Notes under the pieces: generated by a model
Told to the model about the DNA's origin: nothing
Seen by the model: only the letters and a program-made list of their open reading frames with translations
Database searches by the model: none
Source of the DNA: Candidatus Thalassarchaeaceae archaeon
GTDB taxonomy: Archaea; Thermoplasmatota; Poseidoniia; Poseidoniales; Thalassarchaeaceae
Assembly (NCBI GenBank): GCA_045568075.1
Contig: JBJLBP010000001.1
Coordinates: 300,001 to 332,000 of the forward strand
Direction: 5' to 3'
DNA: 32,000 bases
Position numbers and translations under genes: made by a program
Shown here: one piece after another, positions 723 through 25,726 of the stretch
Layout: each line of letters opens with the position of its first letter
How positions within the stretch are numbered: position 1 is the first letter of the stretch

Positions 723-3700
723 GTGTGCCAGATGATGGAATCTGCCAGATCCGCTTGGAATTCCCTCCCTCGTGGCCAGCGACGCCTGATCATCTCACTG
801 GCAATAATGGTCGATGCCTGGGTCGGTCTTCGCTACGGTTTCGGCTCGCTTAATCTCCTTGACAAGATTCTGAGTGGCGGTATTCCGAATGACATGGTTT
901 GGCTCCTTCAGATTGTCATCGCAATTTCGGGCGGATTTATGCTCATCAAGATCCTCTTCGACGATGTCCCCGAACATCCCATCCGCTCGATAGGAATCGC
1001 TTGTTCACCTCTCTTTCTTCTCTTCATAGTCTACTTGACTCTAGATATCCTGTTCAAAGGAATGTCTGATGATGCAATCATCACTCTCGATTTGATTTCT
1101 ATCAGTGTCGGCACACTGACATGGTCAACGACTTATCTGGCGATAGCAGTCGGCCTGACGTTGACATACAAGGTCCAGCGATACGGAAATTTCGCACAAT
1201 CTGAATTCTTCATGATTGGGATGTATCTGTCCATGGTTATGGTCTGGGTTGACCAATTCTACCCATTAGCCTCAGCACCACGTGATGGCGTTCTGGTCTG
1301 GTCATTGCTGCTATGGACTATCATCGGTGCCTTCGTTCTCACAGGAATCGCTGGAATCGTCATCGACCGTTTGGTCTACCGTGGTTTCCGCCAGAAAAAC
1401 GCCTCACCTCAAGTGATGATGATTGCCTCACTCGGTATCGCTCTAATCCTTCGCGCCTTGGTCTACTTACGATTCGGCGCGGGAAAGAAAATGTTCGAAC
1501 CAGACGCTGATTGGCGAGTCCCGTCCCTTCGTTGGGACATTCCCACTACCAAGTTGCGATTTTACCTTGGAGATCGCAGCATCGATGAGGGTTCTACGTA
1601 CACTCTGAATTCCTGCGATGCTGAGGGCGGAGAACGAATAGTCGTCGAAGGTAGCAAACCGCTCTTTGAGACATATGATTTGGCGACCAATTGTGTCGAT
1701 CAAGCGACGACCGGCTATGCTTACTACAAGGGAGCAATGCCGGCCGTGATTTTCATCTCGGTGATTCTACTTCTGATTCTCCTGAACAAGACAAGGCTCG
1801 GTCGCCGCATGCGTGCTGTGGCCGACAACCCCGACCTAGCCGCCTCTAGCGGCATTAACGTCGAGAACGTGCAGATGACTAGCGCTTTCCTTTCGGCTGG
1901 CCTCTCGGGTATGGGTGGAGCTATCTTTGCGATGACGCTGCGCTTCACACCAGAGACCGCTTTCAGTCTACTTCTCCCCTCATTCGCCGTCATTGTCCTC
2001 GGTACGATAGGATCGATTCCTGGTGCTATCATTGGCTCGCTCATCGTCGGTTTCGTCCGAGCCCTCTCATCTCCTGTCCTAATTGGAATAGGACAACCCC
2101 TTGGGCGTTCAAATTACACAGCTCTCGACGGTGTCATGCCCTACATCTTCCTCATCGCCATTCTGATGATTATGCCCGAGGGAATTGGCGATGCCTATGA
2201 GAAATGGAAGGTCAACCGACTTCGCAAACGCGCGGAACAGGTTTCGGCGCCTAGCAAGAAGACCGGCGCGGTCTTGGCCTTCCTTCCAACTGGAATGTTC
2301 GGATTGCATAATATGCAGCAGCGCAAGGAGTCTCGCGGGCAATCGATGATGATTGCAAGCGTAGGGGCCTATGTCTTCCATCGAATCTCAAATTTCATTG
2401 GGGCTAATTCCTTCTCTGAAGGTGCTTGCTCTCAAACCTGCCAGGATAACGAAGGTGTCTCCTCTAACCTCGAATTAGTCACAGGTAGAAGTGATGGAAC
2501 TCTTGTTATCACCGACTCCCCATTTACAGAGGCTAATATTGACTCACCACCGAGCGATGTTGCACCTTATCTGCATGAGAGTTGGGCTGCAGAGCATCTC
2601 CAATCCATGAATGAGAAATGGTATGATCTGATGTCCGGAGAAATGATGCTTCTCGATATCATTTCAACGCTCGGCGATATCATTTGGCCAGCTCTGCCTC
2701 TACTCGTATGGCTTGTCGCAATTGTCGAAGGCGTTTACTTGCTACAAGGCCGCGATGACGACCCTCTCCGCCCAATCATCTCGAAGTTCGAAGACGCTAC
2801 TTCATCCACAGGCACCGGCTTCTCGGGACTCACGATTTCAATGAAGCAATTAGGGACTCACCTTGATTCAATTCCGAAGAAAGTTGGCCCCATAATCGAC
2901 TCCCTGACTGATAATTTACGTCGCCCCTTCTCGCGTGGAGAAGTCGATAGAAGTGGAGGAGATCACTTGGCTATTTATGGGCGCGAGAGTCCGAAGGGTT
3001 CGTGGATAATGTTCGGTGTTTTTATGTTCATTCTTCTCCTATTCTTGGCTTGGCTTCCGGTTGCTGAGCAAGATGGAATGCGCTTCATCAAGGTGCTTCA
3101 GGTATCGAATGTACTTGTCACACTCTCAATATTTGCCTTGATGGCTTTCTCTCTTAACTTACACACGGGTGTGACAGGAATGGTCAATTTCGGTGTGATT
3201 TTCTTTGTAGGAATTGGGTCGATTGTCGTCGGTATCCTCAGTGCTCCATCGGAACTCCATGGATACGACTGGCCGGTTATTCCCGCGACGATTGTAGCGA
3301 TTTTGGTAGCGGCGCTGGCGGGATGGATGCTAGCTTATCCGACAGCCCGTCTTCGAATGGATTACTTCGCAATCGTTACGATTTCGCTTGGCGAGATTGT
3401 CAGGGTTCTGCTAGCCGGAGAACCCCTACTTCGGGCTGGATCGTGGGGTTCCTCAATCGGAATCTCACGCTACACTCTACCTGGTGAATCATGGTGGTTC
3501 TGCGGCTCGGATGTGCCGAATAAGGCACCTCTTGCTGGCCTTGATGCGACACTTGGCACTGCTGATGATATCATTCAGAGGATGGAACCGTCAGATTGCC
3601 GCGAAGCGGTCGATTTGTCGAGTCCCGCGGTATCTATTGGTGACTTGATGAATCTCGGTGAGCCGGCGCCTTACATGCTGCTACTCGCAGTCATTGGCAT

Positions 3701-4448
3701 CCTCAGTACCATCTTCGTCTGGTGGTTGCTTGACACTATACTCGCCTCTCCATGGGGTCGCATTCTGCGCGCTATCCGTGAGGATGAAGAGGTCGCGCAG
3801 CACCATGGTCACGACGTTCTCACGCACAAGGCGGCGAGCCTAGCGCTTGGCGCGGCAATTGCTGGCTTTGCCGGTGCGCTTTGGGCTTGGAAGCTGACAG
3901 GATTCCAGCCCAATCACATGATGCCAGCCAGGTCGACATTCCTCGTCTGGGCAGCATTCATCGTTGGTGGCGCTGCCAATAATCGAGGCATGGTTGTCGG
4001 TGCTTTCATCATCGTCTTGATGGAATTCGTCTTCAACGTCCTCGTCGCTGGCCAAGGATCTTCAGACCTGCCATTGCACACTACGGCGGGACATATCGAT
4101 AGTCTGTTTGAATGGCTAGTAGTTGACTCGTGGGAGGTAGTCAACATCTTCCTCGTGCTCGCTCTGCTAGGTTGGCTCACGAATAGAGCCGGACTACGCG
4201 AAGTCGGTTTTGCCGGCGCAGTCACATTTACTTTCACTGGCTTGATGATGGGTCAGCGATCCATCGATGAAACATTCTCCGGCGGATTACAAGCCGATAT
4301 GGCCTATGTCAAGGTCCTTCTCATTGGCTTCCTAATCCTCTTCTCTCTCAAGTTCAACCCGAAGGGTCTGTTGCCAGAGGTTCCGAGCCGCCCGGATCGC
4401 CCACAAGCGGCAGAAGCGGGCGGCGAAGGAGGTGATTCAAGTGAGTGA
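723..4448 (+). CDS. livHM: Fused LivH-LivM branched-chain amino-acid ABC permease (1241 aa) with an extra N-terminal TM region and large inserted loops.
   Basis: The N-terminal half has LivH-like segments (YLAIAVGLTLTYKVQRYGNFAQSEFFMIGMY; RLGRRMRAVADNPDLAASSGINV). The C-terminal half has LivM-like segments (FSLNLHTGVTGMVNFGVIFFVGIGS; SPWGRILRAIREDEEVAQHHGHDV; LALGAAIAGFAGALWA). The listed start is GTG 723; ATG 732 is an alternative. Confidence 0.8.
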   Translation: MCQMMESARSAWNSLPRGQRRLIISLAIMVDAWVGLRYGFGSLNLLDKILSGGIPNDMVWLLQIVIAISGGFMLIKILFDDVPEHPIRSIGIACSPLFLLFIVYLTLDILFKGMSDDAIITLDLISISVGTLTWSTTYLAIAVGLTLTYKVQRYGNFAQSEFFMIGMYLSMVMVWVDQFYPLASAPRDGVLVWSLLLWTIIGAFVLTGIAGIVIDRLVYRGFRQKNASPQVMMIASLGIALILRALVYLRFGAGKKMFEPDADWRVPSLRWDIPTTKLRFYLGDRSIDEGSTYTLNSCDAEGGERIVVEGSKPLFETYDLATNCVDQATTGYAYYKGAMPAVIFISVILLLILLNKTRLGRRMRAVADNPDLAASSGINVENVQMTSAFLSAGLSGMGGAIFAMTLRFTPETAFSLLLPSFAVIVLGTIGSIPGAIIGSLIVGFVRALSSPVLIGIGQPLGRSNYTALDGVMPYIFLIAILMIMPEGIGDAYEKWKVNRLRKRAEQVSAPSKKTGAVLAFLPTGMFGLHNMQQRKESRGQSMMIASVGAYVFHRISNFIGANSFSEGACSQTCQDNEGVSSNLELVTGRSDGTLVITDSPFTEANIDSPPSDVAPYLHESWAAEHLQSMNEKWYDLMSGEMMLLDIISTLGDIIWPALPLLVWLVAIVEGVYLLQGRDDDPLRPIISKFEDATSSTGTGFSGLTISMKQLGTHLDSIPKKVGPIIDSLTDNLRRPFSRGEVDRSGGDHLAIYGRESPKGSWIMFGVFMFILLLFLAWLPVAEQDGMRFIKVLQVSNVLVTLSIFALMAFSLNLHTGVTGMVNFGVIFFVGIGSIVVGILSAPSELHGYDWPVIPATIVAILVAALAGWMLAYPTARLRMDYFAIVTISLGEIVRVLLAGEPLLRAGSWGSSIGISRYTLPGESWWFCGSDVPNKAPLAGLDATLGTADDIIQRMEPSDCREAVDLSSPAVSIGDLMNLGEPAPYMLLLAVIGILSTIFVWWLLDTILASPWGRILRAIREDEEVAQHHGHDVLTHKAASLALGAAIAGFAGALWAWKLTGFQPNHMMPARSTFLVWAAFIVGGAANNRGMVVGAFIIVLMEFVFNVLVAGQGSSDLPLHTTAGHIDSLFEWLVVDSWEVVNIFLVLALLGWLTNRAGLREVGFAGAVTFTFTGLMMGQRSIDETFSGGLQADMAYVKVLLIGFLILFSLKFNPKGLLPEVPSRPDRPQAAEAGGEGGDSSE
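4428..4435 (+). promoter_or_regulatory. Shine-Dalgarno site GGAGGTGA for livG.
   Basis: GGAGGTGA lies 5 nt upstream of GTG 4441, embedded in the 3' end of livHM. The ORF-track start, GTG 4432, lies inside this motif. Confidence 0.6.
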
Positions 4449-6574: not shown

Positions 6575-7003
6575 TCACTCCGCTCCGCAGAATTTCAAAG
6601 CCACGAATTCAGTATTCGTCGGCTCACGATTCATCGATTCAGCATCCATCACTCGAAGGTGCAGCTCACCGACCACATGAATCGTCGCATGATACAGATG
6701 CCCACCATGGACATGGTGACCATTGTCTGACATGATTGTGTGAAGGTGAGTGAATGGACCGTCAGGTCCGGGCATCAGATTCCCTTGAGTCGAGAGTAAT
6801 TCCATCGGTCCATCGTGGTCGAGAGTCTGGTAAACTCCGTCTGAGTCTAAGTATCCTATACGAATATCTCTGACTCGGCCAATTCCGCTCGTGATCGCCG
6901 CGCACTTGATTCCATGCTCAGCCAAGCTCTGGATTGATGCGTGAATCTCTTCGCCGGGGTCAAGTCGCAGAATGACGTCATCTCCTTCTCGGATGAACTC
7001 CAT
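6575..7003 (-). CDS. PPC-domain protein (DUF296, PF03479-like).
   Basis: ILRLDPGEEIHASIQSLAEHGIKCAAITSGIGRVRDIRIGY...ELLSTQGNL...THLHTIMSDNGHHVHGGHL...TIHVVGELHL matches the PPC/DUF296 pattern (GxxEixSLxGxi...HlHxxxxxxdGxxxGGHl). It lies 4 nt upstream of the hydrolase gene, so they are likely co-transcribed. Confidence 0.7.
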   Translation of the reverse strand: MEFIREGDDVILRLDPGEEIHASIQSLAEHGIKCAAITSGIGRVRDIRIGYLDSDGVYQTLDHDGPMELLSTQGNLMPGPDGPFTHLHTIMSDNGHHVHGGHLYHATIHVVGELHLRVMDAESMNREPTNTEFVALKFCGAE

Positions 7004-7093
7004 AGACCGTCCACCGAGAGGGAGTGCTTCAATGCCACGTAGGTTGTTTTTCCCTCTCTCAATCGCGATTATCCACTGTCTGAGTAGGCTGTT

Positions 7094-7200
7094 CTTCCGG
7101 TGGGCACGGCGAACCCCAGTCAGAAGTTGCAGTGGAAGGGCTCAGCCCCTCATTTTGGCGACGTCAAGCGATGAAACCCTCCAGTGGAAGCAGAGGGGTC
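7094..7200. other. Cluster of three ORB-like (origin recognition box-like) dyad elements, one with a 3' G-string. This is a candidate Orc1/Cdc6 binding region or replication origin.
   Basis: The three elements are 7179-7200 CTCCAGTGGAAGCAGAGGGGTC, 7127-7140 TTGCAGTGGAAGGG and 7094-7107 CTTCCGGTGGGCAC. They sit in the largest non-coding gap of the window, immediately 5' of mcm. See the findings. Confidence 0.4.
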
Positions 7201-7232
7201 GAGATTCCCATCCGCTTTGTTCATAGACCACG

Positions 7233-7240: not shown

Positions 7241-7256
7241 CTTCCCGCGCCCGGCG

Positions 7257-9425
7257 GTGAAATCAATGACGATGGCAGCACACGACTCCTCTGCGCGGTG
7301 GCGGACTTTCTTCAATGAAGCCAAGGAATCGGAGATCGTTCTTCTCCTGTCAAAACAGTCTGAAAATGCTGTTCTTCCAATCACTTTCCACGAACTCCAG
7401 GCCTTCGACCCAGAGTTCGCCGAAGACGTGCTCATTGATCCACGCAATATCATCGATAACGGGCGTGACACGCTCACAGAGATCTGTCGTGAGCGCGGGG
7501 AGGACATCGATTGTCTGCTACGCGTGGGTGAACTGCCCAAGGACAGCAGGCGCGACCTTCGTGATGTGGGTAGCCGTGATATTGGGAAATTACGTAGCGC
7601 TGAAGTTATTGTGACAAAAATCAGCGAAATCAAGCCTCGTATTCACCGTGCTGTCTTCCAATGCGAGGCTTGCGGTCACACAGTAGAGAAGATTCAGGAC
7701 AACGAGCGCGAACTCAAGGAGCCGCTTCGTTGTCCCGAGGAAACTGGTTGTGGAGAGATAGCAGGCCGCTCTGGAGGAACCCGTTTCATATTGGTGATGA
7801 ACGTCTCTCGAATGGTAAACAACCAGTGGATAGAGGTGCAAGAGGTTCCCGAGAACGTGCCGAGTGGAGCCCAACCATCTCGCGCTCACGTTCTCGTTGA
7901 AGGCGAACTTGTGAACAAGCATCTTCCTGGTCAGAGGGTCATAATCAACATGATTCCAGTTGTTCATTCTGAGGTCAAGAGGAATAAGAAGACCCCGATG
8001 TTCGACATCATCTATCACCTCGTAAGTTCTGAGCACGAAAGCACTCCATTCACTGAGATCAAAATTTCTGATGAGGACCGCGAAGCAATCATCGATGTTG
8101 GCTCGCGCCCGGATCTTTTGCAATTGATGCAGCGCTCGATAGCGCCATCGATTTACGCCACCGGAGTAGTGCATTACGTCAAGCGCAGCCTCGCTCTCCA
8201 GCTCTTTGGAGGCGTATCTCGCATCAATAAGGACGCGACGCGCTCTCGCGGCGACGTCCACATCCTGCTAATGGGCGACCCTGGAGTCGCTAAATCCCAA
8301 CTTCTGAACTACATGTCAAAACTCTCACCGCGAGGCATGTTCGCGACCGGCGGTGGTGTCTCGGGCGCAGGTCTCACTGCCGCCGCTGTTCGCGACGATT
8401 TCGGTGGCGGCGGACGCTTCGCCCTCGAAGCCGGTATTCTTCCACTTTCAGACCGTGGAATGGCGGCGATCGACGAATTCGACAAGATTAGTGAGGAAGA
8501 TCGCCGCACCATGCACCCCGCTATGGAACAACAGCGCCTCGATGTCTCAAAGGGCGGTGTCAAAGCGACTCTGAACACCCGCTGCGCTGTATTGGCAGCA
8601 GCTAACCCGATCCGAGGGCGATTCACTAAGCGAGGTGCGAACGAGAGCGTTATGCATTCATTCAATGAGACAGGTCTTCCTCCAGCCCTCGCCTCTCGTT
8701 TCGACATCATCTGGATGTTGCGAGATGAGGTCCGGGTCGATGATGACGAGCGTATCGGTCGTCACATTCTCGAGATCAGAACTCAGGGAATCAGCGAGTC
8801 GAAGATTGACGAAGCGATGGAATTAGACCTCCGCGAAGCTGACGAGGGTCTGATTTACGACAAAGGAGTCGATGGTTCGGAGCACCTCACTGTAGAGTTT
8901 CTTCGCAAGTTCATCGCTTATGCTAAGCGTAACATCCACCCCGATCTCAACACCGACGCGAAGGCGCTGATTCTCGATTATTACACCAAGGAGAGACAGT
9001 CTTTCGGCCGAGATGAGCAACAGTATGCCGAGACCGAGGTAATCCCGATTACTCCGCGTGCGCTTGAGGGTCTGATTCGCTTGACTGAAGCTCACGCAAG
9101 AATGCATCTTCGCGAGATTGCCACAGCCGACGACGCGAAGATGGCGATGGCTATCTTCCGCCACTGGCGCGAGGAAGCAGGAATCGAGGATGAATCGGAA
9201 CTGATGTCCGGGGTGTCTGTTTCTCAAAGGAACGCGGGTAATGTAGTCAGAGCCGTATTACGAGACCTGTGCACAGACAAGGGTGTGGCTGAACTTACCA
9301 ATATCCTCAACCGCTGCGAAAACCGCGGTGTCAAGAATTTCCAAGTCGAAGAGGTGCTCTCTAACATGCTTCAGAGTGGCGAACTCTTCAGCCCTCGCAT
9401 CGAGGAGTATTCTTTCGCCCGCTGA
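7257..9425 (+). CDS. mcm: MCM replicative helicase (minichromosome maintenance protein).
   Basis: N-terminal C4 zinc motif CEACGH...CPEETGCGE, Walker A GDPGVAKSQLL, Walker B AAIDEFDK, arginine finger SRFDI, and a C-terminal winged-helix-like tail. No intein. The start may be ATG 7266 or 7272. Confidence 0.95.
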   Translation: MKSMTMAAHDSSARWRTFFNEAKESEIVLLLSKQSENAVLPITFHELQAFDPEFAEDVLIDPRNIIDNGRDTLTEICRERGEDIDCLLRVGELPKDSRRDLRDVGSRDIGKLRSAEVIVTKISEIKPRIHRAVFQCEACGHTVEKIQDNERELKEPLRCPEETGCGEIAGRSGGTRFILVMNVSRMVNNQWIEVQEVPENVPSGAQPSRAHVLVEGELVNKHLPGQRVIINMIPVVHSEVKRNKKTPMFDIIYHLVSSEHESTPFTEIKISDEDREAIIDVGSRPDLLQLMQRSIAPSIYATGVVHYVKRSLALQLFGGVSRINKDATRSRGDVHILLMGDPGVAKSQLLNYMSKLSPRGMFATGGGVSGAGLTAAAVRDDFGGGGRFALEAGILPLSDRGMAAIDEFDKISEEDRRTMHPAMEQQRLDVSKGGVKATLNTRCAVLAAANPIRGRFTKRGANESVMHSFNETGLPPALASRFDIIWMLRDEVRVDDDERIGRHILEIRTQGISESKIDEAMELDLREADEGLIYDKGVDGSEHLTVEFLRKFIAYAKRNIHPDLNTDAKALILDYYTKERQSFGRDEQQYAETEVIPITPRALEGLIRLTEAHARMHLREIATADDAKMAMAIFRHWREEAGIEDESELMSGVSVSQRNAGNVVRAVLRDLCTDKGVAELTNILNRCENRGVKNFQVEEVLSNMLQSGELFSPRIEEYSFAR

Positions 9426-9429
9426 GCCT

Positions 9430-11127
9430 ATGAGCGATGACCGTTCGCTTACCTTCGTGAGCAGCGGCGAGCCGCGCGGCGATATCTCGAAGCCCTCGGA
9501 TCTAGATCCACTGGGTCTTGGCTTCATGTGCGGCCTCGAAATCCATCAGCAACTCAAAACCGGCAAGCTGCATTCGCGCATGCCGAGCACACTCTATGAG
9601 GTGGGAATCGATGAGATACCCCCAGATTGGGAACGGCAGAGCCGCCGCCTTCGAGCTGCTCAGGGTGAGGGCGGCCGTGTCGACGTAGCGGCGCGCTTTG
9701 AGGCGCGCCGCAACCGCTCCTTCGTCTATGTTCAATCGCCTAATTCGGGTTTGATCGAATTAGACGAAGCACCTCCACTATCTCACGACGAAGCAGCCGT
9801 TAGCGCTGCTTTGACAATCAGCGCGATGATGGCTGCGAAGCCAGTTCCATTCTTGCAAGCTATGCGCAAGACGGTAATCGATGGCTCGAATACCAGTGGA
9901 TTTCAACGTACGACACTGATTGCAACCGACGGCAAGATTCAGACAGATTTGGGTGCCGTCGGCGTCGATGTAATCTGCCTCGAGGAGGATTCAGCTCGCA
10001 AATTAGACACTAAATCCACCGCGGGTGGGGAGGTAGTCATCTACACTCTCGATAGACTCGGAGTGCCCCTTGTTGAGATTGCAACCGCTCCAGATGTGCA
10101 GACTCCTGAGCATGCTAAGGAGACGGCACTCGCTCTAGGAACAATGCTCCGTGACACCCGTATGGTGCGTCGCGGATTGGGTTCGATTCGTCAGGATCTC
10201 AACGTCAGTATCGCTTGTGGTGACCGAGTCGAAATCAAGGGTTGTCAAGATCTAGATTGGATTCCTCGGATCATCCGACTTGAGATGGCTCGCCAATTAC
10301 ACATGTTCCGTCTCGCGACCGAACTTCGTTCCGAGGCGAGTCTTCCAGCACTTCCAAGCGACCGACGCGATGATCAAACTCCTGTCGAAAATCGCGTCGC
10401 CAAAGCCGCAGCAGCCCGAATTCCGATGCAACTCCAAGATGTGACTGGCGCCTTTGTCGACTGCACATCGACAATGATTGAGCGAGCACTGGCCAAGGGA
10501 GATAGCGTCAAATCAACAATCCTACCAGGATTCGCCGGCCGAATCGGAACCAAGCAATTAGACGAGGAGGGCTCTCAACTACCTCGCCTCGGCCGAGAAC
10601 TTGCTAGCGCCGCCAAATTAGCTGGTGTCGCAGGAATTTTCCACTCCGACGAACTACCAGCCTACGGAATCGGTCAGAAAGAGGTCGACACAATCAGAAC
10701 AGCCCTCGAGCTTGACGAATCAGATGCCTTCGTCCTCTGTGTAGCACCAGAGTGGCAAGCCGACCTCGCACTCGAATCAGTCATCACCCGAGCCCGCCAA
10801 GCCTACCACCGTATTCCGCAAGAAGTCCGCAACGTCGTCATTCGCAAGGGAGCGCCTGAAGACGGCACCACTACCGCCATGCGGCCACTTCCCGGTGGAG
10901 CGCGGATGTATCCGGAGACCGACATCCCAGTCGTGCCTCTCGACGAACAGCGCTGGTCGAGCATCAGTGATGATCTACCACTCAACAGAATCCAGAGAAA
11001 CGAGAGACTGAGCGCCTATGACATATCTAGTAACCAAGTAGAAGCCCTACTTGGAGCCGAACTTGATGATGTTCTCGTCACTGCTGTTGAAGGTGGACTA
11101 TACGGCTGCCCGAGGCGTGCCAGCTAA
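9430..11127 (+). CDS. gatE: Glutamyl-tRNA(Gln) amidotransferase subunit E (archaeal GatE), covering the catalytic core and insertion domain. It ends prematurely relative to the tail domain.
   Basis: GLEIHQQL cradle motif, TLIATDG, GVPLVEIATAPD, RQDLNVSI and ARMYPETDIP are GatB/GatE family hallmarks. ATG 9430 lies 4 nt after the mcm stop. The ORF stops at TAA 11125-11127. Confidence 0.85.
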   Translation: MSDDRSLTFVSSGEPRGDISKPSDLDPLGLGFMCGLEIHQQLKTGKLHSRMPSTLYEVGIDEIPPDWERQSRRLRAAQGEGGRVDVAARFEARRNRSFVYVQSPNSGLIELDEAPPLSHDEAAVSAALTISAMMAAKPVPFLQAMRKTVIDGSNTSGFQRTTLIATDGKIQTDLGAVGVDVICLEEDSARKLDTKSTAGGEVVIYTLDRLGVPLVEIATAPDVQTPEHAKETALALGTMLRDTRMVRRGLGSIRQDLNVSIACGDRVEIKGCQDLDWIPRIIRLEMARQLHMFRLATELRSEASLPALPSDRRDDQTPVENRVAKAAAARIPMQLQDVTGAFVDCTSTMIERALAKGDSVKSTILPGFAGRIGTKQLDEEGSQLPRLGRELASAAKLAGVAGIFHSDELPAYGIGQKEVDTIRTALELDESDAFVLCVAPEWQADLALESVITRARQAYHRIPQEVRNVVIRKGAPEDGTTTAMRPLPGGARMYPETDIPVVPLDEQRWSSISDDLPLNRIQRNERLSAYDISSNQVEALLGAELDDVLVTAVEGGLYGCPRRAS

Positions 11128-11131
11128 GGCA

Positions 11132-11572
11132 ATGGCATCGGCTATGCTCGACAATACTCGATTGGAGATTGCCGAAGGTACCGATTACGCAACCGAAGAG
11201 ATTCCTTGGCCCATTCTGACACTAGCCATCTACGCGCGCGAAGAAGGTATCATCACTCGCGAAGGTCTCGTATCGATGACTCGAACTCTTCTGCTTGAAG
11301 GCCCCTCATTCACTACCACAGAGTTCGAAGATCGTCTCAAATGGTTTGCAGCAAGGGCCGAGCAAGACGGCTTCACTCCAGCCGATTCATCAGCAGTCGA
11401 GGATGCTGTCAACGCCGTCCTTGCCGACCGTGTTGATTTCGTAAAAGAACGCGGTTTAGGCGCAATAGGGCCACTAATGGGTATGGTTATGGGTGAATTG
11501 GGAGGGGCTGCCGATGGTAAGATCGTTAGCCAGACCTTGAAGCAGAAAATCAACGAAATCTTGGAAGGTTGA
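11132..11572 (+). CDS. gatE: GatE C-terminal helical/YqeY-like tail domain, encoded in a different frame from the GatE core (a frameshifted or split gene).
   Basis: ...DRVDFVKERGLGAIGPLMGMVMGELGGAADGKIVSQTLKQKI is the GatB/YqeY tail signature. This frame is open from 11051. ATG 11132 is the first ATG after the upstream stop. Confidence 0.6.
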   Translation: MASAMLDNTRLEIAEGTDYATEEIPWPILTLAIYAREEGIITREGLVSMTRTLLLEGPSFTTTEFEDRLKWFAARAEQDGFTPADSSAVEDAVNAVLADRVDFVKERGLGAIGPLMGMVMGELGGAADGKIVSQTLKQKINEILEG

Positions 11573-11635
11573 TTGCTTTCAAGCACTGTTCATCCCGAGT
11601 AAATTGATAGACTATACACACAGCCATCGGCCTCC

Positions 11636-16266: not shown

Positions 16267-19200
16267 GTGGAAAACGTGTTCTTCCACCTCAGAACCCGTG
16301 ACCTCGTTGCATTCGCTCTGGTCCTTCTCATGTTGGGAATGAGCGCTTCTTTCGGAATCGCCCCAGAGGATGAACGGAAATCTACCTCTTTGGAAGATGA
16401 AACTCCACTTCTTATGACCCACTCAACAATCACCGACATCGGCTTCTCCGCTGACTCGATTTACACAAACACAACAATCGCCGCGGGCACTTACAACGGC
16501 TGTGCAATTCTTGAGAATCAAAGCATGGTTTGCTGGGGTGACAATGAGTATGGTCAACTCGGCGATGGGACTACTGACGGATCGGTGGTGCCGATTTACG
16601 TCAACGTTGCCGCTAACGAAACTCCTGTCGAGGTCACGGTTGGACAAGTCACAGCCTGTGCCTTGATGGAATCAGGGAACATCTACTGCTGGGGCTCAGG
16701 TTACTATGGTAAGATGGGTAACGGTGAGCCCTGGGGTGATGATTATGTGAATACAGAGATGCGTCAAGTATTGCTTCCTGAAGGTCAAGGCGGTCAAACG
16801 GTCTCGATTTCCGGCGGCCACATCTGCACTATCCTCGACAACGGTGACGTCTACTGTTGGGGTCGAGGCAACCAAGGTCAACTCGGATATGGAGGCACAT
16901 CAAATCGCAATATTCCAGCAAAGGTAAATTTGCCCGGACAGCGAAGTGCGATTGCGATTTCGACCGGGACCTACATGACTTGTGCTATCACGACCGATGG
17001 AATGGGCTACTGTTGGGGCGAAAATGACGAGGGACAACTCGGGAATGGCACTACAAATACGAGGCGAACGACACCCGTCGAGGTCCTCTTTCCATCTGGA
17101 TACACCCCTGTTTCTATCTCGGCTGGCGATGACTTCTCCTGTGCTTTGATGGATAATCGCAAGGTGATGTGCTGGGGTGAGAATAACGATGGTCGCTTGG
17201 GCCAAGGTCCTTTGGCAACCGATGATGAAACAACGCCTGTTTGGGTGAGTATGGAGAATAGTGAGACGGCTCATTTCCTTGATATCGGAACAAAATCTGC
17301 TTGCATGATTCTGGATTCAGGGGAAACCAAGTGCTGGGGTACAAATGAGGAGGGCCAAATAGGCCAGGGAGACACCAATATCGACTATTATCCAACTCCA
17401 ACTGAGGTGAGCGGTAACCACGACTTCGTCGCTCTTTCAATCAATTCAGATACTATTTGTGCGATTACATCTGACGCAGAAGGATACTGCTGGGGAGATA
17501 ATGAGGCTGGCCAGACTGGACGTGGATCAATAGATACCGACGAACCGACACCAGGTGAAATTTTGTTTACTTCGAATCACCTGATGCTCGACGATCGTGA
17601 TCCGGATGAAGACGGTATTCTTTCGATCTTCGACCCCTTCCCAAGAGGGTGCATTCCAGGCAGTTGGTTCAATTCCACTCTGGGTGATTGTCAGTGGAAC
17701 TCCCCTGGTCATTACACAGATCAAGCAGAGTTGACTCAGGAAATTCCTTGCCCGATTGGCAGCTATCAGCCGTATACGGGTCAGTCGAGTTGCTTACTCT
17801 CGCCGTCGGGTAATTACACAGACGTTGAAGCATCGATTACACCAACTCCATGCCCAGCCGGCCAATATCAGCCAGCTGAGGGCCAGACCGCGTGCATCGA
17901 GAACGATGCTGGCCACTTCTCACTCGAAGGTTCAGTCGAGCAAGACCCCTGTCCGAAGGGAACCTACCAGCCTTCTACCGGACAGGCGGATTGCCTCAAT
18001 GCCGACCCCGGACATTTCGTCAATGTTACGGGCTCAACGTCCCAGACGCCGTGCTCGCAAGGGACCTATTCATCTACGTCGATGGCAGAATCTTGCACCG
18101 AGGCGAGCCTTGGTTATCATGCACCCAATACGGGTTCGACAGAGCAGACAGAATGTGCTGTCGGAACTTTCGCTGACGAGACCGGCCTTGCGCAATGTAA
18201 GGATACTGCTCCCGGTCATTTTGTTGCCTCCACAGGAGCATCCAGTGAGACTCCATGCCCTCCCTCGCAGTACCAGCCTTTGGGAGGGCAATCCTCCTGT
18301 TTGCTAACTGACCCAGGGCATTATACGACCTCGGATGGCTCAATCGAGCAAACCGAATGCACTTGGGGATATTACCAGAGTGAGTCTGGGTCTATTCGTT
18401 GTCTGACCTCTAAACCAGGTCACTACGTCAATCAATCTGGCGCCGCTGAACAGACTCCTTGTTCTCCTGGTTCATTCCAGAACCAGTATGTGAAACGAGA
18501 ATGCATCGAGGCCTTTGAAGGATATTTTGTCGCAGAAGCGGCCTCGCCCTCTCAGACCCGTTGTCCACTTGGGTATTACACAGATTCGAGAGGCTCGTTA
18601 GAGTGTAATCTCGTCTCTCCAGGGCACTACACCACTACAGAAGGGGCGACAGCTCAAACTCCCTGTTCGAATGGTACTTATCAGCCTGAATCTGGACAGT
18701 CATCCTGTCATTACGCAGACGAAGGGCATCATGTTCCTGAGGAAGGTGCAAGCCAACAAATTCCGTGCCCACCGGGTTCTTTTCAGGCGCTGACTGCTAT
18801 GCAATTCTGTATCGATACCGATCCGGGTTATCACACTCCTGAGCCAGGAATGACCGAGCAGATTATCTGCTCAGCAGGAACCTTCCAACCCGATGCCGGC
18901 CAAGGAATATGCCATCAAGCGGACAAGGGGCATTACGTTCTAATTTCTGGAATGACCGAGCAGACGATTTGCCTCGCGGGTTGGTTCCAACCTGAAGTTG
19001 GTCAGCTTGAGTGTTTGCAGGCACAACCTGGCTACTATTCTCCAGCGGCGGGAACCGCTGATCAGATTGCCTGCGAGCCCGGTACATATCAGGGTCGGAC
19101 GGGAGCTTCCAATTGCAATAATGCCGAGATTGATCACTACGTTGAAGCAGCAGCCTCAACTTCCCAGACGCCATGCCCTGAGGGGTCATCTCAACCATTA

Positions 19201-19323
19201 GAGGCACAATCAGAGTGCATCTTCCCTCCGGGTCTAAGCACACAGACAATTCTCTTGGTTGCAGGAAGTGTTGGAGTGATTTTAATCACCGGCCTCGTTC
19301 TGATTATGCGTAGAAGAAATTGA
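16267..19323 (+). CDS. Surface protein paralog 1 (1018 aa): signal sequence, 7-blade RCC1-like propeller, TSP3-like DxDxDG site, 32-Cys ladder of 34-aa repeats, C-terminal TM and RRRN tail.
   Basis: N-terminal LVLLMLGMSASFG. Seven blades: CWGDNEYGQLGDG, CWGSGYYGKMGNG, CWGRGNQGQLGYG, CWGENDEGQLGNG, CWGENNDGRLGQG, CWGTNEEGQIGQG, CWGDNEAGQTGRG. DDRDPDEDGILSIFDP linker. Repeats of C-P-x-G-x-Y-Q-P-x-x-G-Q-x-x-C / x4-P-G-H-Y-x4-G-x3-Q-T-P-C. TM helix ILLVAGSVGVILITGLVLIM. GTG start. Confidence 0.85.
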   Translation: MENVFFHLRTRDLVAFALVLLMLGMSASFGIAPEDERKSTSLEDETPLLMTHSTITDIGFSADSIYTNTTIAAGTYNGCAILENQSMVCWGDNEYGQLGDGTTDGSVVPIYVNVAANETPVEVTVGQVTACALMESGNIYCWGSGYYGKMGNGEPWGDDYVNTEMRQVLLPEGQGGQTVSISGGHICTILDNGDVYCWGRGNQGQLGYGGTSNRNIPAKVNLPGQRSAIAISTGTYMTCAITTDGMGYCWGENDEGQLGNGTTNTRRTTPVEVLFPSGYTPVSISAGDDFSCALMDNRKVMCWGENNDGRLGQGPLATDDETTPVWVSMENSETAHFLDIGTKSACMILDSGETKCWGTNEEGQIGQGDTNIDYYPTPTEVSGNHDFVALSINSDTICAITSDAEGYCWGDNEAGQTGRGSIDTDEPTPGEILFTSNHLMLDDRDPDEDGILSIFDPFPRGCIPGSWFNSTLGDCQWNSPGHYTDQAELTQEIPCPIGSYQPYTGQSSCLLSPSGNYTDVEASITPTPCPAGQYQPAEGQTACIENDAGHFSLEGSVEQDPCPKGTYQPSTGQADCLNADPGHFVNVTGSTSQTPCSQGTYSSTSMAESCTEASLGYHAPNTGSTEQTECAVGTFADETGLAQCKDTAPGHFVASTGASSETPCPPSQYQPLGGQSSCLLTDPGHYTTSDGSIEQTECTWGYYQSESGSIRCLTSKPGHYVNQSGAAEQTPCSPGSFQNQYVKRECIEAFEGYFVAEAASPSQTRCPLGYYTDSRGSLECNLVSPGHYTTTEGATAQTPCSNGTYQPESGQSSCHYADEGHHVPEEGASQQIPCPPGSFQALTAMQFCIDTDPGYHTPEPGMTEQIICSAGTFQPDAGQGICHQADKGHYVLISGMTEQTICLAGWFQPEVGQLECLQAQPGYYSPAAGTADQIACEPGTYQGRTGASNCNNAEIDHYVEAAASTSQTPCPEGSSQPLEAQSECIFPPGLSTQTILLVAGSVGVILITGLVLIMRRRN
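17650..19218 (+). repeat. In-frame coding repeat array: 32 cysteines and about 15.5 units of about 34 aa (about 102 nt), ephrin-receptor-like/GCC2_GCC3-like.
   Basis: The span from first to last ladder Cys codon is 1569 nt (523 aa). Cys spacing alternates at roughly 13 and 19 residues. Confidence 0.8.
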
Positions 19324-19382
19324 CTCGGTCCGACATTGAATGCGCACTACCGTCGGAATGACTAAAGCAAACCTAGAACCAT

Positions 19383-22300
19383 GTGCCGTCTATGATAGAT
19401 AGCCACCGATTGAAGCCTTTGCTTGCTCTTTCTTTAGTCGTCATGATGCTTGGCATGAGTGCCTCAATTGGAATATCCGAAGACTCTCCTCCAAATGAGG
19501 AATCAGAACTCCCTCAAGTCATTGAGCCGAGATCCACACATGGTGGTCTAAACATTCCCGGTTCGACCGCGGGTTCAGTTTATTCAGCCTCGACGGTTTA
19601 TGCCTCGTGGAATTACAGTTGTGCAGTCCTCAATACCAACGGCATGAAGTGCTGGGGTGAGGGTAGTTATGGGAAACTCGGACACGGCTCCGGAGGCAAC
19701 TCCGTGGAGCCTGTTAACGTCCTGCTCGGAAATAACGCAGGAATCAGCACAGCAACAGAGGTTGGAGCGGGTTTGAGTCATCACACCTGCGCCATGATGA
19801 CCGATTCCACACTGCAGTGCTGGGGCGAAGATTGGAATGGTCAGAATGGTCACGGTAGTGGTGGTGGCTGGCATGGTGGAGATACCTCTCCAGTGGTAGT
19901 GAATATGCCCACCGGGCGGACCGCGCTGACAGTAACCAACGGTGGCCATCACACTTGTTCAATTATGGACAATAGTTCATTGTGGTGTTGGGGACGTGGC
20001 GGAACGGGCCAACTCGGAACTGGAAGTTTGAATGACCATTACGTTCCTGAATTAATTTCATTGCCACCAAATGCCTCACCAATCGCTGTTTCAGCCGGCT
20101 GGGATAGCACTTGCGTCATACTCCAAAATAACACTGGGATGTGCACTGGTTGGAATGGTTATGGCCAACTTGGTGATGGTACCCAAACCAATGCATCCAC
20201 ATTTACTCCTATGTCTGTACTACCTCCAAATAGTAATTTATCAGCAATCTCTATGGGAGTTAGTCACACTTGTGGTTTGTTGAAAAATGGTAGTATCTAT
20301 TGCTGGGGAAATAACGCAAATGGGCAGCTTGGTGACAACACAACTGAATCAAGAAACGACTCATCGGTGCAAGTAATTCTGCCCGCAGGTAGAACTGCCA
20401 TCACTGTGGATGCGGGGATGCACCACTCATGTGCCATCCTCGATGACGATAGTGCCGTGTGCTGGGGTGACAATGAGTATGGTCAAATCGGAGACGATAC
20501 CACCACTGACCGCCTAACTCCTACAGCTATATCGTTCCCAGGGGGTATCGGTGTGGCTACGATTAGCGCAGGTCGCGTTCACAGTTGCGCGGTCGTAATG
20601 AACGGATCGACATACTGCTGGGGAGCTCACCACCTCGGTCAACTCGGCAATGGTTTGGGCGTCGATAGCGACATTCCAATGTATGTCAATCTCAGTACTG
20701 GAGGGCAATATTATCACGCATCTCTTGGCGAGAGAGATCTCGACGATGATGGAATCCTGTCGATTTTCGACGACACACCTTACCCTCCTCCTATCTGTCC
20801 AATGGGGCAATACGTGGTCGGCTACGAATGCATCGAAGCATCTCCTGGTAATTACACTCCTACATCTGGTATGTCTGAACAGTTCCCCTGCCCAGCAGGA
20901 ACCTACCAACCTGAATATGGACAGGCCTCATGTTATGATGCACCACTAGGATACTATGTCCCATCTAATAGTTCAATCAGTGCGATGACGTGTCTAGCAG
21001 GGACCTTCCAGAATCAAACCGGTCAGACTTCGTGTATCGATTCTCCTCCTGGAAACTACACCAATACTGATGCTGCTTCTGAGCCGACCATGTGCGGCGT
21101 CGGACTATACCAACCACTGAGCGGCCAAACCTCATGCCTCGCGAGCGATGCAGGAAATTTTGTAGAAAGTGAAGGCCAAACGGAGCAGACTGCTTGTGAA
21201 GTGGGCACCTACCAACCGGGAATCGGGCGCACAAATTGTTTCTCGGCCGAAAAGGGCCACTATGTGAGTCAGGAGGCTGCAACCGACCAGACAGCGTGTG
21301 AGGCTGGAAGTTATGCTGATGAAAGCGGCTTAACCGCCTGTAAAATGGCAGATCCCGGGCATTATGTCGGGTCTATGGCAGCTGTTACACAGACCGCCTG
21401 TGCACCGGGTGAATACCAACCTCAATCATCCCAGACCTCTTGCCTCACGACTGAGGCAGGTCATCAAAACCCCGACATCGGTTCTACAGATATGATTCCG
21501 TGTGAGGCCGGATATTACCAACATGAGACTGGCCGAACGTATTGCCTCGCTGCAGACCCCGGGTCTTACATCCCAGCCCCTGCAGCTTCGGCTCAAATCG
21601 AATGTCCTGCAGGAACCTACTCTCAAGAATCAGCCAGCACTAGTTGTATTGATGCAGACGCTGGTTTTCACATTCCAGAGTCAGGCTCAACGGACCAAAT
21701 CGAATGCGTTGCAGGAACTTATTCTTCCGATGCAGGGTCCACAGTCTGTGCCAGTGCAGACCCCGGATATTACGTGTTGAGTAAACAAGCAACCGGCCAA
21801 ATTGCGTGCGACGCAGGATCTTATCAGCCAGAATCTGAGGCTACTGGTTGCTTGCAGGCCATCCCTGGACACTATGTTGAGTCCAGCGCAAGCGACTCTC
21901 AGGTTTCTTGCCTCGCTGGAACCTATCAGGCAGAGGCTGGGAAAACTAGTTGCATTACCGCACCTCCAGGAACTTACGCTGCTGAAGAATCCTCAACCAC
22001 AGTCGAAAACTGTGGCCCCGGAACCTACCAACCGGATTCGGGCCAATCCTCCTGTCTCGAAGCCGAGGTAGGTCACATCGTAGATTCTCACGGCGCAACC
22101 GAACAGATTGCATGCGAAGCTGGAACCTACCAACCCCTAACTGCACAGACTGAGTGTGAAACCGCCAGTCCTGGAAGTTACGCTGCATCTCCCGGCTCAG
22201 CAGAAGCAACTCCATGCTCGCCTGGAACCTATCAGCCAATGTTCGGAGCTGATTCCTGTCGCCTCGCTAGTAAGGACCATTTCGTCGAACTTGAGGGTGC

Positions 22301-22607
22301 AATCAGTCAGACACCTTGCCCTTCGGGCGAGTCTCAAATGAACGAGGGCCAGCCATCTTGCATCGTTGATGTGGATAACTCACTACCTATCGAAATGATT
22401 GCGATTGGAGGCGTGGTCGTCCTAGCCCTAGCAGGATTCATGCTCACTCGTGGTAAGAGTGAGCCTGAGCCAGTACCTCAGCGCCGTCGAAGACCACCTA
22501 AGGGTGCCCGTCGCAAGAGGAAGCGACCTGAGAGCGCACGTAAGGAAGAAGAGGACCAGAATAAGTGGGGAAGGCCTTCTGAGGACTCAGGAGGTGAAGA
22601 GGAATGA
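19383..22607 (+). CDS. Surface protein paralog 2 (1074 aa): same architecture, with a long Arg/Lys-rich then acidic cytoplasmic tail.
   Basis: N-terminal LSLVVMMLGMSASIG. Blades: CWGEGSYGKLGHG, CWGEDWNGQNGHG, CWGRGGTGQLGTG, CTGWNGYGQLGDG, CWGNNANGQLGDN, CWGDNEYGQIGDD, CWGAHHLGQLGNG. ERDLDDDGILSIFDD linker. A 32-Cys ladder. TM helix MIAIGGVVVLALAGFML. Tail RRRRPPKGARRKRKRPE...GGEEE. The start is GTG 19383 or ATG 19392. Confidence 0.85.
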   Translation: MPSMIDSHRLKPLLALSLVVMMLGMSASIGISEDSPPNEESELPQVIEPRSTHGGLNIPGSTAGSVYSASTVYASWNYSCAVLNTNGMKCWGEGSYGKLGHGSGGNSVEPVNVLLGNNAGISTATEVGAGLSHHTCAMMTDSTLQCWGEDWNGQNGHGSGGGWHGGDTSPVVVNMPTGRTALTVTNGGHHTCSIMDNSSLWCWGRGGTGQLGTGSLNDHYVPELISLPPNASPIAVSAGWDSTCVILQNNTGMCTGWNGYGQLGDGTQTNASTFTPMSVLPPNSNLSAISMGVSHTCGLLKNGSIYCWGNNANGQLGDNTTESRNDSSVQVILPAGRTAITVDAGMHHSCAILDDDSAVCWGDNEYGQIGDDTTTDRLTPTAISFPGGIGVATISAGRVHSCAVVMNGSTYCWGAHHLGQLGNGLGVDSDIPMYVNLSTGGQYYHASLGERDLDDDGILSIFDDTPYPPPICPMGQYVVGYECIEASPGNYTPTSGMSEQFPCPAGTYQPEYGQASCYDAPLGYYVPSNSSISAMTCLAGTFQNQTGQTSCIDSPPGNYTNTDAASEPTMCGVGLYQPLSGQTSCLASDAGNFVESEGQTEQTACEVGTYQPGIGRTNCFSAEKGHYVSQEAATDQTACEAGSYADESGLTACKMADPGHYVGSMAAVTQTACAPGEYQPQSSQTSCLTTEAGHQNPDIGSTDMIPCEAGYYQHETGRTYCLAADPGSYIPAPAASAQIECPAGTYSQESASTSCIDADAGFHIPESGSTDQIECVAGTYSSDAGSTVCASADPGYYVLSKQATGQIACDAGSYQPESEATGCLQAIPGHYVESSASDSQVSCLAGTYQAEAGKTSCITAPPGTYAAEESSTTVENCGPGTYQPDSGQSSCLEAEVGHIVDSHGATEQIACEAGTYQPLTAQTECETASPGSYAASPGSAEATPCSPGTYQPMFGADSCRLASKDHFVELEGAISQTPCPSGESQMNEGQPSCIVDVDNSLPIEMIAIGGVVVLALAGFMLTRGKSEPEPVPQRRRRPPKGARRKRKRPESARKEEEDQNKWGRPSEDSGGEEE
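20796..22361 (+). repeat. In-frame coding repeat array of paralog 2 (32 cysteines, about 34-aa units).
   Basis: The span from first to last ladder Cys codon is 1566 nt (522 aa), with the same alternating Cys spacing. Confidence 0.8.
22590..22597 (+). promoter_or_regulatory. Shine-Dalgarno site GGAGGTGA for paralog 3.
   Basis: GGAGGTGAAGAGGAATGA: SD, 6-nt spacer, and ATG 22604 overlapping the TGA (22605-22607) of paralog 2. Confidence 0.65.
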
Positions 22608-25600: not shown

Positions 25601-25726
25601 GTTGGTTTCTTCATGATGAATCGAGGCAAGTCGGGTGGCCCACCGAAGGGTGGTGCATCAGGTGGTAATATGCGCCGCGGGCCTCCACAAAAGGGAGCCA
25701 AGCGACGTAAGAAGCGACCTGAGTGA
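22604..25726 (+). CDS. Surface protein paralog 3 (1040 aa): same architecture, with a Gly/Pro/Lys/Arg-rich cytoplasmic tail.
   Basis: N-terminal LSLALLMLGMSAAFA. Blades: CWGSGGSGRLGHG, CWGNGGFGQMGNG, CWGNNEQGAVGAS, CWGENWNGQLGYG, CWGLDNWGQLGDG, CWGKNNKGEAGTG, CWGDNWYGQAGNG. NDRDPDDDGILTIFDP linker. A 32-Cys ladder. TM helix IPIAGAVVVAAAVGFFMM. Tail PPQKGAKRRKKRPE. Confidence 0.85.
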   Translation: MNRLNESYRRTILSLSLALLMLGMSAAFALDAGESESLPEEQSPRDNHSPLHEPGAPLGSVYTNLTITQGYNHACMIQANHSLICWGSGGSGRLGHGSSTSSVTPVYANLPANETPVEIGAGWWHTCGLMESGKIYCWGNGGFGQMGNGQTQDNNYEMIQVSLPFGRTGKTIAVGEHHACTIADNDEVYCWGNNEQGAVGASGYQDAEATPVHVDLPGTLYAISIGAGNEHTCVAVNNGRAYCWGENWNGQLGYGGSEWASYQPRMVQIPGNRDVVSIAAGGWHSCAILDNGKVMCWGLDNWGQLGDGGSSEDQFTPVYVSMGSNTARAIVTGWDTSCMILDYGQTQCWGKNNKGEAGTGDTGVNEYTTPATVAGSHDFVSISMIDEGACAINSDAEVYCWGDNWYGQAGNGQTSTQEYSPVELDYSNNHAKMNDRDPDDDGILTIFDPSPYGCIAGTWINISTGDCAATDQGYYTDQPQMYYQIPCANGTYQPASGQASCLLAPAGYYVDYEAAVEATPCPAGEYQPTEGQTSCLETIVGHYTTGGDANPIPCAPGSYQPASGQSECILADPGYHVDSSGSSTQSMCAPGGYSAGNGTADCTLAELGRFVAGTGATGSDTCGVGTYADVEGLVACKDADAGHYVDTEGASEPTPCPTGQYQTTTGQTECMDTEVGHYTSDEGSANQRECDRGSFQSSTGASSCDAAEVGHFVDEMAASEQTPCTAGSYQNEPSSTYCKYASEGHHVPDAGSSSQTRCPVGTFSDTTGLVECHQASPGYTVIVEASTSQDACEIGTYQSDFGQTHCDDAEMGHYVPSEGAGAQTPCSMGTYQSRTGQSSCIDAEPGYFAGQEGMTNPDFCTAGTYQPNSGQSACDDAEMGHYVELSGKTEQTPCKQGNYQPSPGQTSCLEADAGHIVPESGASAQTPCEPGTYQDRTGEITCRLAAKNNYVDEAGSDSQKKCATGYSQPERGQSECLKDAAESSLPIIPIAGAVVVAAAVGFFMMNRGKSGGPPKGGASGGNMRRGPPQKGAKRRKKRPE
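23963..25531 (+). repeat. In-frame coding repeat array of paralog 3 (32 cysteines, about 34-aa units).
   Basis: The span from first to last ladder Cys codon is 1569 nt (523 aa). Confidence 0.8.

Follow-up and report, generated by a model that had tools for sequence, protein, structure and literature searches.

What is an origin recognition box (ORB) doing in front of a helicase gene? ORBs have so far been known almost only as parts of replication origins next to orc1. The stretch of DNA analyzed here (32,000 nucleotides from a Candidatus Thalassarchaeaceae archaeon, NCBI GenBank assembly GCA_045568075.1, contig JBJLBP010000001.1, positions 300,001 to 332,000; hereafter the window) carries ORB-like elements directly upstream of mcm, the gene for the replicative helicase. 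The original prediction, made from this sequence, had offered two explanations for them, viz. a candidate replication origin or an operator bound by the initiator Orc1/Cdc6. Of these the operator fits the results better; the origin sits poorly with a conserved pair of direct repeats that is not accompanied by an unwinding element. With moderate confidence, we interpret positions 7127-7200 as a two-site Orc1/Cdc6 operator in the divergent control region shared by mcm and a gene for a PCC-domain protein.

A Bipartite Origin Recognition Box Upstream of mcm

ORBs are defined by a dyad, which is read by the winged-helix domain of the initiator, and an asymmetric G-rich element, which is read by its AAA+ initiator-specific motif. 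Both parts are present in the element at 7179-7200, whose core TCCAGTGGAAGCAGAGGGGT (7180-7199) starts 86 bp before the ATG of mcm: the dyad TCCAGTGGAA (7180-7189) is followed by a 5-nt linker and the G-string GGGGT (7195-7199), and the G-rich element lies on one side of the dyad only. The dyad is identical to the core of published consensus sequences of the TTCCAGTGGAA type. Table 2 of Borrel et al. (2014; PMC4153887) gives CTTCCAGTGGAAACGAAAGGGGT as the archaeal ORB consensus and GTTCCAGTGGAAATGG-AGGGGTA as that of the Methanomassiliicoccales, a related order of the Thermoplasmatota, in which single sites include GTTCCACTGGAAACAG-AGGGGT and TTTGCAGTGGAAATGA-AGGGGT. The window's CCTCCAGTGGAAGCAG-AGGGGTC resembles the ORBs of this order in its dyad, its one-base-shorter linker and its G-string, and a variant of the more distal dyad described below, TGCAGTGGAA, is also found among the sites of that table.

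Within the window this element stands alone. The pattern TCCASWGGAA-N5-GGGGT at 0-1 mismatch has a single match against a chance expectation of 0.01 from shuffled sequence (any match at all occurred in 1/100 shuffles of the window), and the same site, with 34 bits, is the sole match of at least 12 bits to an ORB weight matrix. When dyads are scored by themselves, the sites at 7180 (20.2 bits) and 7127 (16.6 bits) are the top two of the window, and the few remaining matches occur at the frequency seen in shuffles. All three strings quoted by the original prediction are present where it had placed them, and its identification of 7179-7200 as an ORB is strongly supported by the match to the published consensus, by conservation at a fixed position and by the full-length Orc1 orthologue of the lineage (both described below). 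The segment 7180-7199 is, on this strong support, predicted to be a full ORB and a binding box for Orc1/Cdc6.

Conservation of the Box in Marine Group II

With the MCM protein as query, 80 loci (MCM 60-98% identical) were identified in species-representative genomes, all from Marine Group II (MGII; Ca. Poseidoniales), and the loci that could be named to family belong to the Thalassarchaeaceae (MGIIb). The counts given here cover the 75 loci in which the start of mcm was mapped; in 74 of these the upstream sequence exceeds 230 bp. The original prediction had made its case dependent on the presence of the motif upstream of orthologous mcm genes, where it proves to be decisively kept: the strict ORB pattern occurs 83-87 bp before the mcm ATG in 50/75 loci, and one- or two-base variants of it are found there in the rest. 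A search of both strands of 1.30 Mb of these loci together with the window, allowing up to 1 mismatch, returned 73 matches, of which 72 lie at -75 to -95 of mcm on the mcm strand, all with the G-string at the spacing seen in Methanomassiliicoccales, while the one exception is the distal element of locus L080; no background matches are present elsewhere in this 1.30 Mb of orthologous Poseidoniales sequence. A MAFFT alignment of the 75 intergenic gaps places the best-conserved blocks at TTGCAGTGGAAG (the distal dyad), CTCCAsTGGAAg...GGGGT, TTCATAGAC, GCCCGGCGGTGA and the start codon, between which the spacers vary freely, and the information content of the ORB columns is near-maximal. This pattern indicates strong purifying selection on an ORB whose position is fixed across the 75 related genomes.

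These comparative data already refute a chance resemblance without function, to which we assign a negligible probability. The motif is short, and nothing further speaks for chance; against it stand the 0.01 matches expected per window and the retention of a single position across 72 loci whose MCM proteins are as little as 60% identical, next to spacer columns that vary freely. A 14-base single-ORB pattern run on a public collection gave chance matches only, among the matches listed.

A Second Dyad in Direct Repeat and a Weak Third Element

The dyad TGCAGTGGAAG at 7127-7140 shares the exact 9-mer CAGTGGAAG with the full ORB, which starts 52 bp further on, and 7127-7139 has the form of a mini-ORB, i.e., a dyad of ~13 bp that lacks a G-string and lies close to a full ORB. 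At this position a match of at least 9 bits to the dyad matrix is present in 75/75 loci. The original prediction had read this element as inverted, with a G-string at 7117-7113; the dyad itself is real, but its plus orientation outscores the minus orientation in all 75 loci, and a GGGG run is found beside it, on either side, in at most 3 of them. The conserved pair accordingly consists of direct repeats in 75/75 loci, and the proposed arrangement of inverted ORBs flanking a short spacer is not borne out. The distance from the mini-ORB to the full ORB is always 51-52 bp, and the dyad-to-dyad spacer is 40-41 bp long in 73/73 loci measured, which corresponds to five helical turns from start to start. 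Its GC (guanine plus cytosine) content relative to the locus averages -0.06 (sd 0.105), and in the window it reaches 59%, so that no unwinding element lies there.

The string at 7094-7107, also described originally as mini-ORB-like, is present but resembles an ORB only weakly (7.3 bits). A dyad of at least 6 bits is found at this position in 14/75 relatives, compared with 2.6% of background windows, and an inverted left-hand dyad of at least 9 bits in 4/75 loci only; as judged from these scores, this third element is weak and lineage-restricted. It falls in the second copy of what appears to be a tandem-like duplication of 45 bp, confined to the window's lineage (7039-7111; GTAGGTTGTTTTTCCCTCTCTCAATCGCG vs GTAGGCTGTTCTTCCGGTGGGCACGGCG), and this duplication accounts for an mcm/PCC gap of 263 bp here vs ~218 bp in relatives. 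In L080 (9713-9732, minus strand) the distal element is a full inverted ORB, TCCACTGGAAGAGTGGGGGT, which gives a true ORB(-)/ORB(+) pair ~40 bp apart.

Promoter-Like Blocks Between the Box and mcm

Two further conserved blocks lie between the full ORB and the start of mcm (Table 1). The TTCATAGAC block begins 20 bp downstream of the end of the ORB and, from its position, is the putative TATA box of the mcm promoter; the GCCCGGCGGTGA block, likewise judged by position, would include the transcription start region and the Shine-Dalgarno sequence (GGTGA) of mcm. The ORB, at -83 to -87 of the ATG, would thus be a box fixed just upstream of a core promoter, as expected of an operator.

The Initiator of the Lineage and the Surroundings of Its Gene

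No orc1 gene is present within +/-10 kb of mcm in any locus, where a P-loop search of all open reading frames (ORFs) recovered only ABC-transporter ATPases, and the original caveat that the window has no orc1 is correct, as none of the proteins encoded in it is Orc1/Cdc6-like. A first protein profile made from the Orc1 proteins of Aeropyrum, Sulfolobus and Pyrococcus (the last used as a probe only) had no matches in MGII and matched only Thermococci, Archaeoglobi and Crenarchaeota. The gene was reached through sequences from PDB alignments, which led to a DNA pattern for the sensor-2 peptide HGDARxALDLL; on metagenome contigs this pattern identified 120 archaeal orc1 loci, from which a marine clade was picked by tetranucleotide similarity and BLAST and was named Thalassarchaeum/Thalassarchaeaceae by a second protein search. 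The Thalassarchaeaceae Orc1 has 412 amino acids (aa) and aligns end to end (E ~1e-89) with 2qby_A and 2v1u_A, viz. Sulfolobus Orc1-1 and Aeropyrum ORC1, the proteins of the ORB-bound crystal structures. A cognate initiator is therefore present in relatives of the window's genome, among them the assemblies of mcm loci L043 and L048. The original prediction had advised locating orc1; in two assemblies (L326/L043 and L328/L048) it lies on a different contig from mcm, at least 170 kb away. The Walker A motif of the MGII Orc1 is atypical, GVPGSGKT or GVTGAGKT (L281:4384-5619, L204, L237), in place of the GxTGTGKT carried by the Thermococci, Archaeoglobi and Crenarchaeota proteins examined.

The surroundings of MGIIb orc1 (+/-10 kb) are syntenic in all loci. 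The intergenic regions flanking the gene contain no ORB of at least 10 bits, and the available orc1-locus sequence of a syntenic sister clade (orc1 55% identical) contains none of at least 12 bits; as a control, the same scan finds a strict ORB within 1.5 kb upstream of orc1 in 29/62 other archaeal loci. Upstream of MGIIb orc1 lies a gap of unusual length, ~390 bp (L326:9612-10000, L328, L330, L332, L281:4180-4383, L279:1216-1616), which is very AT-rich (20% GC vs 39% in L326, 41% vs 60% in L330). It has no ORB-like dyads; its extreme AT-richness sits in the distal part, and its proximal 130 bp hold a conserved block CTTATTACCTC ... GAATCCCCGTTGTTC.

A full ORB is found ~4.2 kb downstream of orc1, inside a gene for an 875-aa protein with an N-terminal HTH_5 domain (L326:15457-15480, minus strand; L328:15453-15476; L330:15369-15392; L279:6980-7003). 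This intragenic ORB is kept in four genomes of 38-60% GC as the codons TCC-Ann-GGA-Ann-GAn-GGG-GTn, and the encoded residues vary (S/I/T, T/N/S, E/D) exactly at the degenerate bases of the ORB. Since the amino acids change and the ORB codons are kept, selection would appear to act on the motif as DNA. At -87 to -75 of the ATG of the same gene, the distance seen at mcm, there is a conserved mini-ORB, TTCCACTAGAAAT (17.3 bits). The gap between the HTH_5 gene and two DUF3860 genes (L326:15923-16172, L328:15922-16175, L330:15835-16008) contains this mini-ORB and GTTACAT repeats and is AT-rich (35% GC in a 60% GC genome), and from these features it is a plausible, more conventional oriC candidate for MGII.

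The sites near orc1 also bear on whether the mcm box could be the operator of a different protein, such as a winged-helix regulator, the PCC-domain protein or a fast-evolving Orc1-2-type paralogue, with its likeness to ORBs being coincidental or convergent. The identification as an ORB was made from sequence, palindromic TCCA-N2-TGGA cores are generic for dimeric or winged-helix regulators, MGII has been reported to have a second, fast-evolving Orc1/Cdc6-2 paralogue, and the PCC-domain gene always adjoins. However, both halves of the bipartite box are matched at the spacing typical of the clade, an asymmetry for which a simple dimeric binder of a palindrome has no need; a few kb from orc1 the bipartite motif has been selectively kept in coding sequence whose amino acids change; and the unusual dyad variant CACTAGAAA is present at both the mcm and the near-orc1 sites within single assemblies (L043 vs L326). 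We therefore hold a different protein to be an improbable ligand.

Does the mcm Site Function as an Origin?

The published minimal origin pattern is ORB(-)/DUE/ORB(+), where DUE is the DNA unwinding element. At mcm the conserved pair is in direct repeat, and 61/75 loci lack the inverted partner (a left dyad scoring 6 bits or more). The original caveat that an AT-rich unwinding element is missing is also right: the gap has 56.5% GC vs 52.9% for the window, the 40-mer in it that is richest in AT reaches just the 10th percentile, and across the family the GC content of the mcm gap is on average just 0.018 below that of the locus, compared with 0.07-0.23 below for the spacers of ORB pairs at orc1 elsewhere. 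An unwinding element is thus lacking in the window and is not consistently present in the family. Adjacency to an initiator gene (orc1/cdc6 or whiP), which is usual but not obligatory for an oriC, is not found at mcm. The cumulative GC skew of the window has its minimum near 22 kb, not at 7.1 kb, and the skew over +/-10 kb at 32 loci has no consistent switch, although both spans are too short to decide the matter.

An origin at mcm, either primary or one of several, at which Orc1 on the ORB and mini-ORBs would load MCM beside its own gene and uncoupled from orc1, is on these grounds unlikely, if worth keeping in view. It has in its favor a canonical full ORB with one or two dyads in an intergenic region, the lack of ORBs in the orc1-flanking regions of MGIIb and its sister clade where other archaea often have them, and the existence of origins free of initiator genes, e.g., in Hyperthermus butylicus. 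The window and 13 relatives, with their weak inverted left dyad, also have a loose ORB(-)...ORB(+) layout, and L080 has a full inverted ORB. Besides the architecture, it has against it that a region of 207-220 bp must also house two promoters and that a better candidate is available 4-5 kb from orc1, where a full ORB, a mini-ORB and the AT-rich gap occur together; the skew, uninformative as it is at that scale, lends it no help. A slightly less probable form of the proposal is that MGII has shifted its origin, or one of several, away from orc1 and into the mcm promoter region, as a compact origin without a classical AT-rich unwinding element. If true, the helicase would be loaded beside its own gene by an architecture that departs from the ORB(-)/DUE/ORB(+) rule, and this in an archaeal group that is among the most abundant in the surface ocean.

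A Proposed Operator in the mcm Control Region

The operator is favored because the mini-ORB, the full ORB and the TATA-like and Shine-Dalgarno-like blocks are in strict register within a compact gap that has an invariant divergent gene; because the HTH_5 gene near orc1 shows a mini-ORB geometry like that of mcm; and because orc1 genes of other archaea repeatedly have an ORB directed at them ~60-90 bp before their start. In Pyrococcus the affinity of Cdc6 is high for a single full ORB and weak for a lone mini-ORB (PMC1904270), and a precedent for an Orc1 paralogue as a transcription regulator is provided by Sulfolobus Orc1-2 (PMC9738581).

In the mechanism that we propose, the dyad TCCAGTGGAA would be recognized by the winged-helix domain of Orc1 and GGGGT by its AAA+ initiator-specific motif, so that Orc1 on the full ORB would sit ~10-20 bp upstream of the B recognition element (BRE)/TATA region of mcm. 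The weaker dyad five helical turns upstream would be on the same face of the DNA and would make cooperative binding possible. Depending perhaps on its ATP/ADP state, the bound initiator would raise or lower transcription of mcm and perhaps of the PCC gene, and the supply of helicase would thus follow the status of the initiator, as with DnaA boxes in bacterial promoters.

Several points weigh against an operator. A fixed distance from ORB to gene is also found at true orc1-adjacent origins, so that it does not exclude an origin. In the Pyrococcus data obtained by chromatin immunoprecipitation on microarrays (ChIP-chip), Cdc6 is found at hardly any sites other than oriC and the dp1 cluster close by (PMC1904270), and the use of canonical ORBs as promoter operators away from the origin is hence not an established habit of initiator-type Orc1. 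The promoter elements were assigned from position only. Lastly, the distinct MGII sequence covered amounts to only ~65 kb, and the coverage of any one MGII genome is less than ~4%, so that a regulon is not definable.

The site might also be bound by Orc1/Cdc6 with a role in neither transcription nor initiation, e.g., for datA-like titration or inactivation of the initiator, or as a landmark for chromosome organization or helicase recruitment. The same sequence evidence for Orc1 binding supports such a role, Cdc6-bound ORB clusters are known outside the unwinding region in Thermococcales dp1 (PMC1904270), and the coding-region ORB near MGIIb orc1 has, like that of dp1, no obvious promoter role. 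The exact TATA-like and Shine-Dalgarno-like register and the invariant divergent gene are, however, most simply explained by promoter function, and a titration site has no need of a fixed position and would be expected to have more sites; a role of this kind consequently seems to us a poor prospect in comparison with the operator.

Flanking Genes and Other Features of the Window

The flanking genes are as the original prediction gave them: mcm is confirmed by its Pfam domains (PDB MCM homologues are matched at E 1e-112), and its divergent neighbor encodes a PCC/DUF296-domain protein (Table 1). The 253 bp between them are, as was also claimed, the largest non-coding gap in the window; a seeming gap of 508 bp (11128-11635) is not non-coding, since the GatB_Yqey domain of a frameshifted gatE is encoded in it. 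The PCC-domain gene is the divergent neighbor of mcm in 72/75 loci, with up to 320 bp of upstream sequence available in the other three, and the intergenic length is 207-220 bp in most relatives and 263 bp in the window's lineage. The invariant pairing and near-constant gap suggest that this uncharacterized protein may be co-regulated with mcm or have a replication-related role.

Table 1. Coordinates in the window of the mcm control region and the genes on either side of it.
Feature	Position	Strand	Characteristics
PCC/DUF296-domain gene	6575-7003	-	Divergent from mcm; Pfam PF03479
Weak dyad-like element, CCCACCGGAAG	7093-7107	-	7.3 bits; faces the PCC-domain gene
Mini-ORB, TTGCAGTGGAAGG	7127-7139	+	Dyad only; same orientation as the full ORB, without G-string
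Spacer between dyads	7140-7178		59% GC; length fixed, sequence poorly conserved
Full ORB, CTCCAGTGGAAGCAGAGGGGTC	7179-7200	+	Dyad and G-string, pointing at mcm
TTCATAGAC block	7220-7228	+	Putative mcm TATA box; -46 to -38 of ATG; conserved as highly as the ORB
GCCCGGCGGTGA block	7249-7260	+	Conserved; putative transcription start region and Shine-Dalgarno GGTGA of mcm
mcm, replicative helicase gene	7266-9425	+	719 aa from ATG 7266; Pfam MCM_OB, MCM, MCM_lid

Two other accounts of the conserved blocks were considered and rejected. An 84-aa ORF (6972-7226) extends over the control region; it has no Pfam match, its conservation is in separate blocks, and the length differences of 40/41 bp and 45 bp break any reading frame, so that it is not a gene. 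Structured RNA was rejected since the blocks have no Rfam match, no consensus fold on either strand and no tRNA.

Elsewhere in the window, gatE (9283-11572) is apparently frameshifted, with GatB_N and GAD in the ORF 9283-11127 and the C-terminal GatB_Yqey in another frame (ORF 11051-11572), which could be due to an assembly error, a pseudogene or programmed frameshifting. Three consecutive genes at 16267-25726 (1018-1074 aa), with RCC1-repeat and ephrin-receptor-like domains, look like a tandem family of probable surface proteins. One ORF of 1241 aa at 723-4448, with a long N-terminal extension, has two BPD_transp_2 (branched-chain amino-acid permease) domains and looks like a LivH/LivM-type permease fusion.

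Comparison with Known Systems

The bipartite ORB, the accompanying mini-ORB and the intergenic position are shared by the mcm site with origins of the Cdc6/Orc1 type (viz. Sulfolobus oriC1, Pyrococcus oriC and the predictions for Methanomassiliicoccales), and the mcm ORB points at the adjacent gene from ~60-90 bp before its start, as is the case at many orc1 genes. Unlike these origins, of which those predicted in Methanomassiliicoccales have ORB pairs flanking orc1/cdc6.1, the mcm site has no conserved inverted partner and no AT-rich unwinding element, adjoins mcm and not orc1, and has one full ORB in a two-promoter gap of 207-263 bp.

A second comparison is with dp1, the gene for the small subunit of PolD in Thermococcales, which contains an intragenic cluster of ORBs and mini-ORBs to which Cdc6/Orc1 binds both in vivo and in vitro (Matsunaga et al., 2007; PMC1904270). 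Both sites are ORB sets on a replication gene, outside the unwinding region of an origin, with one full ORB and mini-ORBs; the dp1 cluster, however, is in coding sequence within the 5-kb oriC/cdc6 neighborhood, whereas the mcm site occupies a promoter region and is distant from orc1. The ORB inside the MGIIb 875-aa gene is the closer counterpart of the dp1 cluster. Sulfolobus Orc1-2, in turn, is described as a non-initiator paralogue that acts as the global transcription regulator of the DNA-damage response (PMC9738581). It likewise places a protein of the Orc1/Cdc6 family at promoters, but the box at mcm is a canonical, initiator-type ORB. The motif that Orc1-2 recognizes at promoters is short and differs from the ORB.

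In the full-text literature that we searched, neither an ORB ahead of mcm nor an origin in Marine Group II is described. ORBs themselves are well known; what is new is a predicted ORB/mini-ORB pair with a fixed place at the putative helicase promoter, away from orc1, in the whole Poseidoniales set examined, and this in a host group that is uncultured and globally abundant. An ORB match beside a replication gene is not necessarily an origin, and pipelines for origin prediction should be used with this caution. In bacteria, DnaA boxes are found in the promoters of dnaA, nrdAB and other genes, and at the titration locus datA. The mcm ORB resembles them in being an origin-type box reused outside an origin beside a replication-related gene, with the initiator doubling as a regulator; the two belong to different domains of life and have unrelated boxes and promoter machinery, and hence the analogy is functional only. 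If Orc1 binds at this site, it would constitute a direct regulatory link from initiator to helicase in archaea, the counterpart of the bacterial genes that are controlled by DnaA boxes.

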